From the sequence record PZ871100.1: DNA of 50,975 nucleotides, one strand, 5' to 3'. The notes under the pieces are model-generated. The model saw only the letters and a program-made list of their open reading frames with translations, did no database searches and was not told the origin of the DNA. The position numbers were made by a program, and so were the translations under genes. Shown one piece after another: positions 33,053 to 50,924 of the stretch (the stretch's first letter is position 1; each line of letters begins with the position of its first letter). Source of the stretch: a phage.

Positions 33053-33150
33053 GGATTATTATCATGTGGCGTTTGTTACTTTTGCCCTTACCTGTTATGA
33101 TGGCGATCTCTATTGTATATGTTGTCATAATGAGATAAGGAGAATTTTTG

Positions 33151-34266
33151 ATGAAGCAAATCAAAATCACAGATGAACAATTTATCAATGAGCGCAAGCA
33201 GGGAAAGACATATAAGCAGATCGCTAGTGAGTATGGCATGAACGTTCGCAGCATTGAGCGACGCGCGGCACGATTAGCAAAGCAAGGTAAAGTTACAACC
33301 ATCGGATCACCTGGTTTTGGTGTTACTGGAGAATCAAAGCTAATTGATAAAGATGGCAATGTGGTTATGACATGGATTAAGACAAGCAAAGACCGCGAAC
33401 AGTTAGAAGCATTAATGCAGGCCGCTATGGATGCATTTAGCGAAGAGGTTCCTCGACTTGATCCACAGCCAGAATCACAAAAGAATTATAGCGAGACGCT
33501 ATCACTGTATCCGATCTTTGACATGCACTTGGGCGCAATGGCGCATAAGCATGAATGCGGCGAGAATTGGGATACAGCAACAGCAGAGCGCGTAATGAAT
33601 AATTTCATTGATTATTCCATCCAGTGTGCGCCGGATAGTGAAAAAGCTGTTTTGCTGATTGGTGGTGATATGCTTCACAGCGACGGACTGGAAGCGGTGA
33701 CACCTGCAAGCGGTCACGTATTGGATCAAGATAGTAGATATGCAAAACTTGTTTATGTTGCCATCCGGTCAGTGCGTCGAGCAATTACAAAGCTGTTATC
33801 AAAACACAAAAACGTCGAGATTCAGATCATTGAAGGCAACCACGACCAAAGCGGCATGATCTGGTTGCGCGCAGCAATGGCGGCAGCATATGAGAATGAG
33901 CCACGAGTGCATGTTGATGTGTCTCCGCGAGTGGTTCATCACACACAATATGGCAAAACGTTCCTGGCATACCATCACGGGCATACTATCCGCAAACCTG
34001 AAACATTGCTAATGATGTGCGCGGCAGACTGGCGCGAAGACTTCGGCAATTCAAAAATGATGTATGCTCACGTAGGGCACTGGCATCATCAAACAGTAAC
34101 TGAAACAAGCCTGGGAATTGTTGAAGTGCATAGCACTATGGCGGCAAAAGATGCATATGCTGCGCGCGGTGGATGGCGTTCTCGTCGCCGTGCGGCTGTT
34201 ATTGTTTATGATAAAGAATACGGAGAAGTAGGGCGATTTATGCATTATCCAGAAATGGCTGGTTGA
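33151..34266 (+). CDS. HTH domain fused to calcineurin-like metallophosphoesterase
   Basis: N-terminal HTH-like KTYKQIASEYGMNVRSIERRAARL; phosphoesterase motifs DMHLG, GGDMLHSDG, EGNHDQ. Confidence 0.6.
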   Translation: MKQIKITDEQFINERKQGKTYKQIASEYGMNVRSIERRAARLAKQGKVTTIGSPGFGVTGESKLIDKDGNVVMTWIKTSKDREQLEALMQAAMDAFSEEVPRLDPQPESQKNYSETLSLYPIFDMHLGAMAHKHECGENWDTATAERVMNNFIDYSIQCAPDSEKAVLLIGGDMLHSDGLEAVTPASGHVLDQDSRYAKLVYVAIRSVRRAITKLLSKHKNVEIQIIEGNHDQSGMIWLRAAMAAAYENEPRVHVDVSPRVVHHTQYGKTFLAYHHGHTIRKPETLLMMCAADWREDFGNSKMMYAHVGHWHHQTVTETSLGIVEVHSTMAAKDAYAARGGWRSRRRAAVIVYDKEYGEVGRFMHYPEMAG

Positions 34267-44054: not shown

Positions 44055-44945
44055 ATGTTAAAACTTGCTGACATTAAATTCCCGATCACCTTCGAATCTC
44101 GCGGCGTTGGTCATTTCATGTTTACCGATGAGAAGACATGCACTAAGTTTAACGAATACGGAAGTCCAAACGCTTCAACAATGGAGGTTGAACACTTCAT
44201 TGAAGCGCACAATAAACACTACAACTCACTCAGAGACTACGGTTACGCAATGCCAGGATACACATGTTTTCACTACAAGCCATATAAGGGTCAGGTGTTA
44301 CCAGTGCGCTCACCGGAACGCGCAGAGATTCCGATGGTCAATATGAAAACGTGCGACTATAAAAAATTGTGGTGCTTAAGCGTGGATAACATCAAGTATC
44401 CGATCGTATTCCGCACGGTTGGTAACTCAACGATTCGCTATACGTCACCAGACAACGGCGTTTATAGCGATGGTCAGAAATCAGAGTTGAAAGTTGATTT
44501 CTTTGTCAATGGTCACAACAAATTCAATCCACACAATGAAGAAGATAAGGTGTACTACGTGGAAGATATTACAAAACACTTGTTTGGAGAAACACCATTC
44601 GGCTACGGGAAGACGTCAATTCAACAAATCATTGGCGAGGAGATCCACAAGGCAGCCGTTGAAATGAAAGCGCCTGGAGGCTGGCGTATTGATAAGAGCG
44701 CCTTTGCTTATCAAGAAATCGTAACGCAGGGCGCTATTGAAGACATGCCAGTTGCCGCCACGCTAAAAGGCGTTCAGCTTGATGACGGCGTGTGGTATGA
44801 ATTAACAGCTAAGCCAAAGACGATCGAGATTCATGATGATGTTGTTATTCTTCTGCTTCATTACGGTAGCGCAAAAAACCGTGCCGTTGCTGGCGAGATT
44901 AGCATCAAGCGCGGAACGATGGTTAAGTGGAAGGTGAAAGTGTAA
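44055..44945 (+). CDS. hypothetical protein with internal tandem duplication
   Basis: 296 aa; two similar ~100-aa segments (IKFPITFESRGVG / IKYPIVFRTVGNS; EHFIEAHNKH / DFFVNGHNKF); AGGAG RBS. Confidence 0.5.
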   Translation: MLKLADIKFPITFESRGVGHFMFTDEKTCTKFNEYGSPNASTMEVEHFIEAHNKHYNSLRDYGYAMPGYTCFHYKPYKGQVLPVRSPERAEIPMVNMKTCDYKKLWCLSVDNIKYPIVFRTVGNSTIRYTSPDNGVYSDGQKSELKVDFFVNGHNKFNPHNEEDKVYYVEDITKHLFGETPFGYGKTSIQQIIGEEIHKAAVEMKAPGGWRIDKSAFAYQEIVTQGAIEDMPVAATLKGVQLDDGVWYELTAKPKTIEIHDDVVILLLHYGSAKNRAVAGEISIKRGTMVKWKVKV

Positions 44946-44988: not shown

Positions 44989-45018
44989 GGCCTCACTTTC
45001 AATGAAGGAGATAAAACT

Positions 45019-45249
45019 ATGTACATTAACAAGAAGATGAAATGCATTTCCGTTAACTATGGTTGCGCTGGCATGTTCAAGCCTGGCGAAATCTATATGG
45101 CGCAAAAGTTGAAATCATCAACCGGATCCTTTTACGTTAGTAATAGTAAGGGGCATCGCATGTTCCTGAACGGTGGTGAAGGTACTAATGTTATGGCACA
45201 CGCTATGGTAATTGCTGAATTTGAGGAAGTGAAAGATGAAAACAAATAA
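45019..45249 (+). CDS. hypothetical protein
   Basis: ATG 45019 with AAGGAG RBS after promoter unit. Confidence 0.4.
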   Translation: MYINKKMKCISVNYGCAGMFKPGEIYMAQKLKSSTGSFYVSNSKGHRMFLNGGEGTNVMAHAMVIAEFEEVKDENK

Positions 45250-45457
45250 GCGCGTCAAGCACAGGTTTACTGATAACCACGGCGACGCGATCGATGTATA
45301 CAAGTTCGGCGATCGCGTTTTTATTGACGGCACGTTTGAAGGTGGGAGCAGTCCGGATTTTAGGTCGATACTCACCGTTGACCAGGTGCGAAAGCTGGCG
45401 GATAAGTTAAATGATCTGGCAGATGAAATCGAATACAAGCAAATTCATTTTAATTGA
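45236..45457 (+). CDS. hypothetical protein
   Basis: 73 aa; GAGGAAG RBS. Confidence 0.4.
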   Translation: MKTNKRVKHRFTDNHGDAIDVYKFGDRVFIDGTFEGGSSPDFRSILTVDQVRKLADKLNDLADEIEYKQIHFN

Positions 45458-45468
45458 TAGGTTTGATA

Positions 45469-46008
45469 ATGAAAAAATACGAATTTGAACTTTGGGGCAG
45501 CAAATACCATTTTTCAACGAGCAAGCCGATTGTTATCGTTGACCTGGACGGAACGTTATCAGACGGAACGCATCGCTTACACCTTCTTCCGACAGAAGAT
45601 TTGCACCTTACAGAAAGCTGGTCTGAGTTCAATAAGGCGGCTGTTGGCGATTCGCCGATTAAGAGCACGGTTGCAGTGGTTAACGGTTTGTGGATGTCAG
45701 GATTTGCCATCGTTATCCTGACCGGACGCAGCGATGAAGTGATGGAGGACACCTGCAAATGGCTTAACGAAAACGGCATCAAGTACGATGCGTTAATCAT
45801 GCGCCGCAAGGAAGACAATCGCAAAGACACAATAATCAAAGAGGAAGTCTTGCGCGCTATCGGACTGGAAAACATTGTGTGCGCTTTTGATGATTCTCCG
45901 AACGTGGTTAAGCACTTCCGCAGCCTGGGAATCACAACCTATCAGGTAACGGAATACGACAAGCCACATAATCATATCCAATCGCATGGCGTGGAGGAAT
46001 TGAAATGA
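45469..46008 (+). CDS. HAD-superfamily phosphatase (nucleotidase or polynucleotide 3-phosphatase-like)
   Basis: Motif I IVIVDLDGTL (DxDxT), later ILTGR and FDDSPN motifs. Confidence 0.6.
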   Translation: MKKYEFELWGSKYHFSTSKPIVIVDLDGTLSDGTHRLHLLPTEDLHLTESWSEFNKAAVGDSPIKSTVAVVNGLWMSGFAIVILTGRSDEVMEDTCKWLNENGIKYDALIMRRKEDNRKDTIIKEEVLRAIGLENIVCAFDDSPNVVKHFRSLGITTYQVTEYDKPHNHIQSHGVEELK

Positions 46009-46166
46009 CATGGATTCTATTTGTGATTATCACAAGCTACAATTCAGCCGCAATTGAGTCTCGCGAGTTCCACGGTGAATCAAGATGTCAGGCCGCGAGA
46101 GAGCAAGTAATTTTGCATATGTCAGATAACGATAAAGAAGTTGAAGTATTCTGTGTTCGTAAATAG
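46005..46166 (+). CDS. hypothetical small protein (53 aa, hydrophobic N-terminus)
   Basis: Not in ORF track; ATGA overlap with phosphatase stop; stop TAG inside promoter box. Confidence 0.35.
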   Translation: MTWILFVIITSYNSAAIESREFHGESRCQAAREQVILHMSDNDKEVEVFCVRK

Positions 46167-46206
46167 CACTTTTTGCAAAAACAGATTATCGGGCTTGCTG
46201 TATAGT
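46163..46206 (+). promoter_or_regulatory. conserved-box promoter-like unit (variant ...TTGCAAAAAC)
   Basis: Box 46163-46182, TATAGT 46201-46206, inverted repeat GGGCTT...AAGCCC. Confidence 0.55.
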
Positions 46207-46236
46207 AAGCCCATCTACAAAAACGAGGATTAAATC

Positions 46237-46500
46237 ATGGTTAATAAAGTTGAGTTTTTCAAAGCGGTAGACAAGATTGACGGCGCGCCAAGTTTCTTTG
46301 CTATCCATTCCATTGACGGCGAAGACGTTGCATACAACGTGATTAGTCGAGACGGTATATCAAAACTTAGTGACCTGGTGGGTTATATTGTGGCGAACGG
46401 GAAATGTGCATGGCCCGATTCACCACGAGAGCCGCGCCGCCGCGACATGCAAAATCCAGTTCTGCTTTACACTCTGGTAATTGAAGGAGTCAACAAATGA
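46237..46500 (+). CDS. hypothetical protein
   Basis: 87 aa; GAGGA RBS after promoter unit. Confidence 0.4.
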   Translation: MVNKVEFFKAVDKIDGAPSFFAIHSIDGEDVAYNVISRDGISKLSDLVGYIVANGKCAWPDSPREPRRRDMQNPVLLYTLVIEGVNK

Positions 46501-46682
46501 TTTGGTTACTTGTATTTTTAGTGGTTTTCTTTTATATTTCAGGCTTATTCATCTTCCGAGCGCTGGTGAAAACATGCGATTGCACTGATAAAGATCAGCC
46601 TCTTGTTCTGATGTTCTGGTTTGTGTGGTTTTGGGTGGCGCTTTACCAGATTGTACGGGATGAAAGCGGCTTTAAGTGGTGA
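46497..46682 (+). CDS. small membrane protein (2 predicted TM)
   Basis: 61 aa; two hydrophobic helices; ATGA overlap. Confidence 0.4.
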   Translation: MIWLLVFLVVFFYISGLFIFRALVKTCDCTDKDQPLVLMFWFVWFWVALYQIVRDESGFKW

Positions 46683-46876
46683 TTCTTACTATAGCGCATT
46701 CACGCAGTGCGCTATGTTGAGATAACAACATGAGATCATGAAGATGCGAAACTTCGAAAAAATCGTATCCAAGAAGAAGCGATACAGCTACTACGAGCAC
46801 CAAGAGATGAATCAACGCTATCGCAAAAAGCGCCAGCGAAAAGGTAAAAATTCCAGTAAACATGGAGAAAATCAAT

Positions 46877-47467
46877 ATGAAACGCGACATTATCATTCTT
46901 AACGGACCGCCAGGAGTTGGCAAAGATACGCTTGCGGCATACTTAACTGGCCATCGTTACGCAGCCGTTAAAGCGTCGTTTAAGCAACCGATGTTTGATA
47001 TTGCATTCTCCATGCTTGGCGTTTACCTATATGACGAGTTCATTGATCTGTATAACGACCGCGAGCAGAAAGAAAAGCCTCAAGCAATCTTGCAAGGCAA
47101 GTCTCCGCGACAATTCATGATCTGGATTAGCGAAGAAGTCATGAAGCCAGCTTTTGGCGAGCAATATTTTGGGAATCGCATGGTTGAGCAAGTACACGAG
47201 ATGTACAGAGATTTAGCTGTTGTAATTAGTGATGGCGGATTCCCTGAAGAAATCAAACCGCTCGTTAAGGCAGGCCATGAAGTGCACATTTGCCGACTGC
47301 ATCGCGAAGGATTCACGTTTGATGGCGATTCGCGAAACTATATTGACCTGAACGGATACCATCACCGAGTCAAGCATTACGACTTCACAATGATTGATGG
47401 CGAGCCAGAAAAGACTGTTGACGAGATCATCAAAACGGTGCAGTGGAAACACACAAAGATTGAATAG
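46877..47467 (+). CDS. P-loop nucleotide kinase (dNMP kinase or polynucleotide kinase-like)
   Basis: ATG 46877 with GGAG RBS; Walker A NGPPGVGKDT. Confidence 0.55.
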   Translation: MKRDIIILNGPPGVGKDTLAAYLTGHRYAAVKASFKQPMFDIAFSMLGVYLYDEFIDLYNDREQKEKPQAILQGKSPRQFMIWISEEVMKPAFGEQYFGNRMVEQVHEMYRDLAVVISDGGFPEEIKPLVKAGHEVHICRLHREGFTFDGDSRNYIDLNGYHHRVKHYDFTMIDGEPEKTVDEIIKTVQWKHTKIE

Positions 47468-47507
47468 CACGAATTGCTAAAAGCGGGGCGCAATGCCTCG
47501 CTATAAT
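47464..47507 (+). promoter_or_regulatory. conserved-box promoter-like unit (variant ATAGCACGAATTGCTAAAAG)
   Basis: Box 47464-47483, TATAAT 47502-47507. Confidence 0.55.
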
Positions 47508-47537
47508 GCAAACACCAATCAACGAGAGGAAATCATC

Positions 47538-47939
47538 ATGGTAGAGTTAAACAACATCCGCATTGGAACAAAATTTCGCGTAACCTGGGCAGATAAATAT
47601 TGCGGAGTTAGCAAGGGCCAGGTTGTTACTGTGGATAGTATTTATCGCGGATGCAGCAAAGACTTTCGCCGCCCACGCATCACGAATGGCTATATCATTA
47701 CTCGCCGTTTTGGCTTTGATCATTATTGCGTAGTGGCGACTCAAGGAGTTTTGATTGAGCTTCAGCGAATCAGCGATCATCGCGGCTGTCATGTCAAAAC
47801 AACGAAGATACCATCTCAGCGATCGCGATACGATGCGCGCAGGATGCGCAGGCTTGCACGAAACGCGATCAAGTTCAAAAAGCATGGTGGTAACTTTTAC
47901 CGAATGTACAAAGGGATTGCGCGAAATGCTGGAAAATAA
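47538..47939 (+). CDS. hypothetical protein (basic C-terminus)
   Basis: ATG 47538 with GAGAGGAAA RBS after promoter unit; 133 aa. Confidence 0.4.
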   Translation: MVELNNIRIGTKFRVTWADKYCGVSKGQVVTVDSIYRGCSKDFRRPRITNGYIITRRFGFDHYCVVATQGVLIELQRISDHRGCHVKTTKIPSQRSRYDARRMRRLARNAIKFKKHGGNFYRMYKGIARNAGK

Positions 47940-48057
47940 CAACAACGCAACAAATCCAAAGCCGCCATTTGATTTTCATGAAATCATGATTGTGTTATTC
48001 TTGATTCTCTTAGTTGTTTATTCAGTGAGGGCCGCAATATGGTTTTTAATGCACTAA
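47926..48057 (+). CDS. small membrane peptide (43 aa)
   Basis: Not in ORF track at this start; hydrophobic helix IMIVLFLILLVVYSV. Confidence 0.25.
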   Translation: MLENNNNATNPKPPFDFHEIMIVLFLILLVVYSVRAAIWFLMH

Positions 48058-50895: not shown

Positions 50896-50902
50896 CCAAC
50901 TA

Positions 50903-50924
50903 CCCGCCAAATGGCGGGTTTTTT
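50903..50924 (+). terminator. rho-independent terminator at right end of window
   Basis: CCCGCC aaat GGCGGG then TTTTTT. Confidence 0.7.

Follow-up and report, generated by a model that had tools for sequence, protein, structure and literature searches.

Phage T5, which degrades the DNA of its host, encodes a broad deoxynucleoside monophosphate (dNMP) kinase, Dnk, and a HAD-type nucleotidase, the 5'-deoxyribonucleotidase Dmp, which act on the dNMP pool; the two genes lie apart from each other, and the timing of their expression differs. A phosphatase and a kinase are joined in mammalian PNKP, in that order along the chain. In the phosphatase of T4 polynucleotide kinase-phosphatase (Pnkp), D165 is the nucleophile and D167 the acid-base, S211 and K258 contact the phosphate, and D278 is the Mg residue; a mononucleotide, 3'-dTMP, is among its substrates (PMC3592404). 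T1 and TLS are reported to break down the host chromosome for reuse of its nucleotides; two TLS proteins, Gp09 and Gp14, bear the same two annotations as the gene pair described here (PMC11447400). That pair consists of a HAD phosphatase gene (45469-46008) and a P-loop kinase gene (46877-47467), both on the + strand of PZ871100.1. This sequence of 50,975 nucleotides (nt), referred to below as the window, is a complete genome of a T1-like coliphage (Drexlerviridae, Hanrivervirus), and its relative KarlJaspers (Bas06; Drexlerviridae, Tempevirinae, Hanrivervirus) is 95% identical to it. We consider it roughly 50% probable that the pair is a conserved, linked module, located in a T1-like accessory-gene cluster, that serves deoxynucleotide supply by salvage. 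The pair was also read as enhancing nucleotide supply in the paper describing phage KanT1 (PMC13164509).

The upstream gene appears in the list of open reading frames (ORFs) as a protein of 179 amino acids (aa), a stand-alone Pnkp-type HAD phosphatase whose DxDxT motif, DLDGT, occupies residues 25-29 (encoded at 45541-45555), in agreement with an earlier note made from the letters of this DNA. The protein matched the Pfam family HAD_PNKP (PF25109) with 80.7 bits (cut-off 27.6; E = 1.5e-22) over profile positions 3-140 of 143, and phrog_415 with E = 8e-67. Sequence searches of the PDB returned only Pnkp1 of the Capnocytophaga Pnkp1-Rnl-Hen1 system and T4 Pnkp, and the fold is closest to the solved Pnkp phosphatase domains. 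Residues D165, D167, T169, R176, S211 and R213 of T4 Pnkp align with D25, D27, T29, R36, T85 and R87 of the window phosphatase, while R246, D254, K258, D277 and D278 align with R112, D120, K124, D141 and D142. With all catalytic residues present in this alignment, the protein belongs to the Pnkp clade of HAD phosphatases and has an intact catalytic site. The score against the NT5C family (PF06941) was 15.6 bits, below the cut-off of 24.8 bits, and an identity as an NT5C-type 5'-nucleotidase was rejected on this basis. In NCBIfam, neither protein of the pair had a match above the cut-off. The phosphatase has no kinase domain, yet it is commonly labelled "polynucleotide kinase" in sequence records; the Sfin-1 paper describes the protein as corresponding to the C-terminal phosphatase domain only (PMC6714547). 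We also considered the possibility that longer homologues (236 aa) contain a remnant of an N-terminal kinase. However, their 57 extra residues are C-terminal and unrelated to kinases. A P1-like PmgS protein also matches the HAD phosphatase, with 39% identity.

The C-terminal tail of the phosphatase (YDKP...SHGVEEL; residues 161-179, encoded at 45949-46008) is nearly invariant and has a predicted local distance difference test (pLDDT) score below 50. In many relatives (P0121, P0123, P0148), the ORF extends beyond this tail, either by an extra domain of 57 aa (the forms of 236-237 aa), by a CxxC...CxxC insert flanked by repeats of GVE(E/S)(L/I)K (206 aa), or by both extensions together (264 aa). 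The tail resembles a docking or junction motif to which interchangeable C-terminal modules can be attached.

The downstream gene (also in the ORF list) encodes a protein of 196 aa with the P-loop GPPGVGKDT at residues 10-18 (encoded at 46904-46930); the earlier note had correctly picked out a GVGKDT kinase here. No Pfam or NCBIfam family was matched by this protein at threshold. It did match phrog_139, "dNMP kinase", over profile positions 79-264 (E = 7.9e-51), and T4 gp1 belongs to the same family (E = 1.8e-65, positions 83-261). This match and that of the phosphatase to HAD_PNKP are both far beyond chance. A profile of 125 sequences of the kinase family could be aligned with gp1 in hhalign over the full length (175-179 columns) with 96% probability and E = 1.9e-9; a narrower alignment gave just 74 columns at 82% probability. 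When the family profile was compared in local mode with the kinase domain of T4 Pnk or with a small Pnk-type profile, only 26-27 columns at the P-loop were aligned. An AlphaFold2 model made from an alignment of 26 sequences (pLDDT 91.5) displayed the two-domain fold of gp1, comprised of a P-loop core and a helical acceptor-binding domain. Among the best 50 Foldseek matches to viral models, most were annotated as dNMP kinases and none as a polynucleotide kinase. A Dnk-annotated protein of Pantoea phage AAS21 matched the model by fold with a template modelling (TM) score of 0.74, and one structural match in BFVD was annotated as a nucleoside 2-deoxyribosyltransferase. A Pnk-type P-loop 5'-OH kinase (AAA_33-like) was found neither in the phosphatase protein nor in its partner. 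On the grounds of fold, profile and context, the downstream gene encodes a kinase that shares both fold and family with T4 gp1 and is predicted to act on (d)NMPs.

The kinase family is large, with 4,207 representatives at 50% identity (E <1e-3) and matches in 1,465 phage records. Twenty-seven positions carry the residue of the window kinase in ≥90% of the 125 family members, including GKD, R62, K65, R78, SE, D-G-F-x-x-E and DSR. All of these except F98 and R143 are kept in three of three kinases from other phage families that lack a Pnkp-type HAD partner. The chemistry of the kinase is therefore probably the same across the family.

The earlier note had proposed either that the two genes resemble the halves of a polynucleotide kinase-phosphatase or that they form a dNMP kinase/5'-nucleotidase pair. 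Profile searches divided the pair between these proposals. The first was borne out for the phosphatase, which is Pnkp-like (HAD_PNKP), but not for the gp1-type kinase, and no ligase was found with them; the second was borne out for the kinase, which is dNMP-kinase-like (phrog_139), but not for the phosphatase, which falls short of the NT5C cut-off. A clear assignment of both genes to nucleotide metabolism, which the note would have taken as a refutation, was not fully reached for the phosphatase. Since the kinase is a dNMP kinase of gp1 type and not the other half of Pnkp, the module, judged by these matches, does not represent a T4-type Pnkp divided into two genes for the repair of tRNA. A ligase to complete RNA repair was also lacking: no RNA ligase or other ligase is annotated in KarlJaspers, and a Pfam scan of the large unannotated ORFs of the window, including one of 296 aa at 44055-44945, revealed none, the small ORFs being only partly covered. 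This agrees with the remark in the earlier note that no RNA ligase was recognised. A hidden RNA ligase in 44055-44945 or in the other large unannotated ORFs was rejected, as Pfam found no nucleotidyltransferase domain in them. ARAGORN detected no tRNA gene in the window, and the annotation of KarlJaspers lists no ribonucleotide reductase, thymidylate synthase, dUTPase or DNA polymerase.

The two genes lie on the same strand 868 nt apart, as the earlier estimate of 0.9 kb implied, and their linkage was examined in 80 viral contigs from IMG/VR that hold the kinase, mostly from related T1-like phages and 44-53 kb in length. In 71 of the 80 loci, the HAD phosphatase preceded the kinase in the same orientation, and in none was a HAD match found downstream of the kinase or on the opposite strand. 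The spacing in the 71 loci varied: the ORFs abut or overlap in 24, are ≈100 nt apart in 9 and are 451-2058 nt apart in 38. In the other nine loci, the kinase was present with no HAD detected in the flank examined. Furthermore, two of the top representatives of the kinase family have an N-terminal HAD_PNKP domain followed by a C-terminal kinase of the same family. A dedicated search of the whole protein database yielded three clusters of such phosphatase-kinase fusions, with lengths of 403, 413 and 461 aa. The fused relatives (P0257, P0387, P0265) all have the order phosphatase, then kinase. The clusters are 74% and 37% identical among themselves and come from several independent assemblies; their halves are close to both window proteins, with the phosphatase-specific segment THRLxLLPTE(D/N)L...ESW in common. 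The phosphatase and kinase genes are thus linked by conserved synteny and by fusion proteins, and the idea that they belong together is well supported.

In the phages with fusions (contig L083, 9143-11642; contig L085, 10001-12517), the next gene encodes a conserved protein of 386 aa that matches phrog_704, "DNA repair exonuclease", with E = 1e-149 or better and has no Pfam match. This gene was considered as a possible ligase, which the phrog_704 match led us to reject. The same neighbourhood was noted in some Drexlerviridae in the KanT1 paper (PMC13164509). In the window, an ORF of 372 aa just ahead of the lysis genes (33148-34266) that was covered by the Pfam scan may be the counterpart of the 386-aa gene.

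Alternatively, the two enzymes may be independent: the phosphatase would clean 3'-phosphate DNA ends in replication or recombination, the kinase would feed the pools of deoxynucleoside triphosphates (dNTPs), the adjacency would reflect shared T1-like descent, and the fusions would be accidents of stop-codon loss. Most of the syntenic loci do come from related 44-53 kb contigs. With a spacer of 0-2 kb that accommodates unrelated small ORFs, tight coupling is not required. The nine loci with a kinase and no detected HAD are consistent with such independence, as are the occurrence of the HAD subfamily without this kinase in phages MIZ3 and Pondi and the rarity of fusions (three clusters in the whole database). 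However, the fusion has been maintained in lineages whose identity to each other is now down to 37%, the pair occurs with overlapping genes in an unrelated family (Autographiviridae, Eracentumvirus), and in Vequintavirinae the kinase has a second, independent and conserved pairing, with another kind of HAD phosphatase. We regard independence of the two enzymes as unlikely.

In the Eracentumvirus Erwinia phage VyarbaL (contig L094, 2887-5033), the order is Pnkp-type HAD phosphatase, kinase and ATP-dependent DNA ligase, with almost no spacing and overlapping genes. In the Kaohsiungvirus Vibrio phage phi-A318 (contig L095, 2088-5175), a gene for a calcineurin-like metallophosphoesterase is followed by a DUF7768 gene, the kinase and a DNA ligase. 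The order phosphoesterase, kinase, ligase in these two phages resembles that of healing-and-sealing systems, and it is mainly this order that keeps alive a different explanation of the pair as a case of non-orthologous end healing. The Pnkp-type phosphatase would remove 3'-phosphates, and a gp1-like kinase would have been recruited to phosphorylate 5'-OH polynucleotide ends. The pair, or the fused protein, would then convert "dirty" DNA or RNA breaks to 3'-OH/5'-phosphate ends, to be sealed by the host LigA or a phage ligase. The membership of the phosphatase in the Pnkp clade, with its full set of catalytic residues, fits this explanation, as do the strict phosphatase-then-kinase synteny, the fusions in the same order, which is likewise that of mammalian PNKP, and the "DNA repair exonuclease" gene that adjoins the fusion genes. 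The adjacency to a ligase nevertheless weighs little, since T7-like phages normally keep their ligase in the same DNA-metabolism module, and the window itself has neither a detected ligase nor a tRNA gene. Moreover, the kinase retains the two-domain architecture of gp1, including the helical acceptor-binding domain, and by inspection there is no invariant acidic residue after strand 2, the site of the general base in P-loop kinases that phosphorylate hydroxyl groups. Finally, kinases with nearly the same conserved residues occur apart from any Pnkp-type phosphatase, next to genes for dUTPase, thymidylate synthase, ribonucleotide reductase or an NT5C-type nucleotidase. Taken together, we consider end healing by the pair to be improbable.

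These metabolic contexts are found in several groups. In a phage of the Chaseviridae, the order is DNA ligase, kinase, dUTPase, and in Maculvirus it is exonuclease, endonuclease, kinase. In Vequintavirus, the kinase gene is overlapped by a downstream gene for an NT5C-type HAD protein of 197 aa (27.3 bits; cut-off 24.8), with thymidylate synthase and ribonucleotide reductase genes nearby downstream. This kinase-NT5C pair was present in all ten related Vequintavirinae contigs retrieved (L096-L105), where thymidylate synthase is usually next. In Escherichia phage AlexBoehm (contig L089, 3998-5199), the two genes (bas56_0189 and bas56_0188) carry no annotation beyond "P-loop NTPase" and "hypothetical". 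The Krischvirus Escherichia phage MIZ3 (contig L091, 3498-3974; contig L106, 1363-2241), a T-even-type phage, has a stand-alone Pnkp-type HAD protein of 158 aa that is 44% identical to the window phosphatase and whose start overlaps the end of nrdB. MIZ3 additionally encodes rnlA and a normal pseT of full length, and the stand-alone HAD subfamily is therefore not simply a substitute for Pnkp. In phage PYps3T, a "dNMP kinase" upstream of a ligase was considered as a mislabelled HAD protein, which was rejected because it matched no HAD profile and no Pfam family. Overall, a role in the nucleotide pool is the better fit to the wider genomic contexts.

In such a salvage module, the T1-like phage would degrade the host chromosome and reuse its nucleotides. 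The kinase would turn 5'-dNMPs from host DNA into deoxynucleoside diphosphates (dNDPs), from which the host Ndk would then make dNTPs. The phosphatase would act on the same pool of breakdown products, either stripping 3'-phosphates from 3'-dNMPs, nucleoside 3',5'-bisphosphates or short 3'-phosphorylated fragments, or disposing of unwanted monophosphates. In either role, only usable 5'-dNMPs would reach the kinase. We infer the substrate of the phosphatase here, and it is speculative, because no nuclease known to give 3'-phosphorylated DNA products was identified in this phage. Several other points weigh against salvage. The closest characterised relatives of the phosphatase act on the 3' ends of polynucleotides and not on 5'-dNMPs, and its match to the NT5C nucleotidases is below threshold. 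The activities of both enzymes are predictions from their sequences and models. Fusion of a kinase with a phosphatase is the classic layout of an end-healing enzyme, the Eracentumvirus pair is directly upstream of an ATP-dependent DNA ligase, and the gene after the fusions is a PHROG "DNA repair exonuclease". The 80 syntenic loci, being mostly from related T1-like phages, are not independent observations.

A further possibility is that the pair, including its fused forms, constitutes a previously undescribed bifunctional phosphatase-kinase. This could be a new DNA or RNA end-healing architecture, in which a nucleotide-kinase fold phosphorylates 5'-OH ends, or a "phosphate-shuffling" salvage enzyme that converts 3'-phosphorylated breakdown products of host DNA to dNDPs. 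We regard such an enzyme as quite unlikely.

Both genes are located within one long co-directional + strand cluster of small ORFs at ≈43.5-50.9 kb, which ends at a terminator-like hairpin (50902-50919). Such clusters of small accessory ORFs are typical of the early or host-takeover regions of phages, which would suit a role in counter-defence, with the phosphatase, the kinase or both destroying or altering a host immune signal or toxic nucleotide (for example, a molecule with a 3'- or 2',3'-cyclic phosphate, or dNTP pools that have been depleted or modified). However, no direct evidence for this was found, with no search made of defence or anti-defence libraries, literature searches gave no report that ties these genes to a defence system, and the contexts of the kinase family are metabolic, making counter-defence very unlikely. 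By megablast, the 3-kb stretch around the gene pair is 90-95% identical to that of many T1-like phages of Escherichia and Shigella, including JLBYU41, egaa, pSf-1 and KarlJaspers. Position 1 of the window is the start of an ORF with coordinates matching the small terminase gene of KarlJaspers. Twenty records named "Campylobacter phage" (host Campylobacter jejuni) matched positions 45000-48000 by megablast, and 39 matched the kinase by tblastn. These matches are unexpected in an enterobacterial phage lineage and may represent mislabelled or contaminated records.

The gap between the two genes contains four small ORFs, all on the + strand, and not three as the earlier note had counted. All four match PHROG families of unknown function and are annotated in KarlJaspers, the last of them in a shorter version. 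The first (46005-46166, 53 aa; phrog_5579, E = 5e-8) has a hydrophobic N-terminus, and its ATG shares an ATGA overlap with the TGA stop codon of the phosphatase, whose own ATG at 45469 is 11 nt past the stop of the preceding ORF. The second (46237-46500, 87 aa; phrog_25318, E = 3e-6) has a stop codon that overlaps the ATG of the third (46497-46682, 61 aa; phrog_9755, E = 4e-28), a hydrophobic protein that is probably a membrane protein. The fourth (46738-46902, 54 aa; phrog_8176, E = 7e-4) is very basic and overlaps the start of the kinase by 26 nt. A GGAG precedes the start of the kinase at 46877 by 9 nt, and the majority of homologues are called at the same length of 196 aa; an alternative ATG is located at 46862. 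In T7, gene 1.1 shares an early block with the dGTPase inhibitor 1.2 and the nucleotide kinase 1.7. The fourth small ORF gave a weak match to the Pfam family Phage_1_1 (T7 gene 1.1 protein; E = 1.3e-3, 19.6 bits), under the cut-off of 21 bits, which its basic, low-complexity composition may explain. Upstream of the pair, the 296-aa ORF at 44055-44945 matches phrog_7116 in two stretches and has no Pfam match; by eye, it has an internal duplication (IKFPITFESRGVG... and IKYPIVFRTVGNS...).

The earlier note had also assigned each gene its own promoter unit. A scan with the sigma-70 consensus found no promoter-like site on the + strand between 45000 and 47500, and the region as a whole had 12 sites compared to 18.2 in shuffled sequence, i.e., fewer than expected from the shuffles. 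The assignment is thus unsupported, and we rejected separate transcription units for two genes that lack promoter-like sites ahead of them and sit in one co-directional cluster with tightly packed start and stop codons. Two hairpins are present in the intergenic gaps between phosphatase and kinase, one at 46191-46212 (GGGCTT/AAGCCC, 10-nt loop) and one in the second such gap at 46691-46715 (ATAGCGCA/TGCGCTAT, 9-nt loop), neither of which is followed by a T-run. They could be elements for RNA processing or stability, or weak terminators.

Many public T1-like genomes already include annotations of both genes, which have also been discussed at the level of annotation; searches of the literature for experimental work on the T1-like genes, for the fusions and for a link to defence returned only annotation-level statements. 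What is added here is modest: that the pairing is conserved, that fusions occur but are rare, and that in another group of phages there is a parallel pairing in which the phosphatase is a different one. The results serve mainly to correct annotations, since hundreds of T1-like records call the 179-aa phosphatase half a "polynucleotide kinase" and the true kinase nearby often bears the label "ATP-binding protein" or "hypothetical". The conserved unit, its occasional fusion, and the Vequintavirinae pairing with a different HAD nucleotidase suggest that pairing a phosphatase with a dNMP kinase is a recurring design in phages that use host DNA. The fused proteins would be convenient material for biochemistry. 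Should the phosphatase prove to work with the kinase on DNA ends, the pair would represent a new architecture for end healing; if not, it belongs to routine phage nucleotide metabolism.

Compared with the known systems, the window phosphatase is closest to the C-terminal 3'-phosphatase domain of T4 Pnkp (PseT), which belongs to the same HAD_PNKP family, is ≈28-30% identical over the core, and has the nucleophile, general acid, phosphate-binding and metal-binding residues in common with it. Unlike T4 Pnkp, it lacks the N-terminal Pnk kinase domain and has a short N-terminal β-hairpin and a conserved C-terminal tail instead, and no Rnl1-type ligase partner was found in the window phage. The window kinase is only 17-23% identical to the T4 gp1 dNMP kinase (PDB 1DEK) and lacks an insertion of ≈36 residues that is present in gp1. 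No phosphatase gene is adjacent to that of gp1 in the 5-kb stretch of T4 examined, in contrast to the window kinase. In mammalian PNKP, bacterial Pnkp and HD-Pnk, a phosphoesterase is combined with a P-loop kinase, as in the window pair, but the kinase is of Pnk type with an open acceptor channel, whereas that in the window is of gp1 type. The Vequintavirinae pair of AlexBoehm (bas56_0189 and bas56_0188) includes a kinase of the same family (≈34% identity) and an overlapping gene for a small HAD phosphatase. It differs from the window pair in that the kinase comes first, the phosphatase is of the NT5C family, and the genes are set among those for thymidylate synthase and ribonucleotide reductase. 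By analogy, Dnk and Dmp of T5 would follow the same logic as that proposed for the window pair, with the difference that the window phosphatase is of Pnkp type and not of NT5C type.

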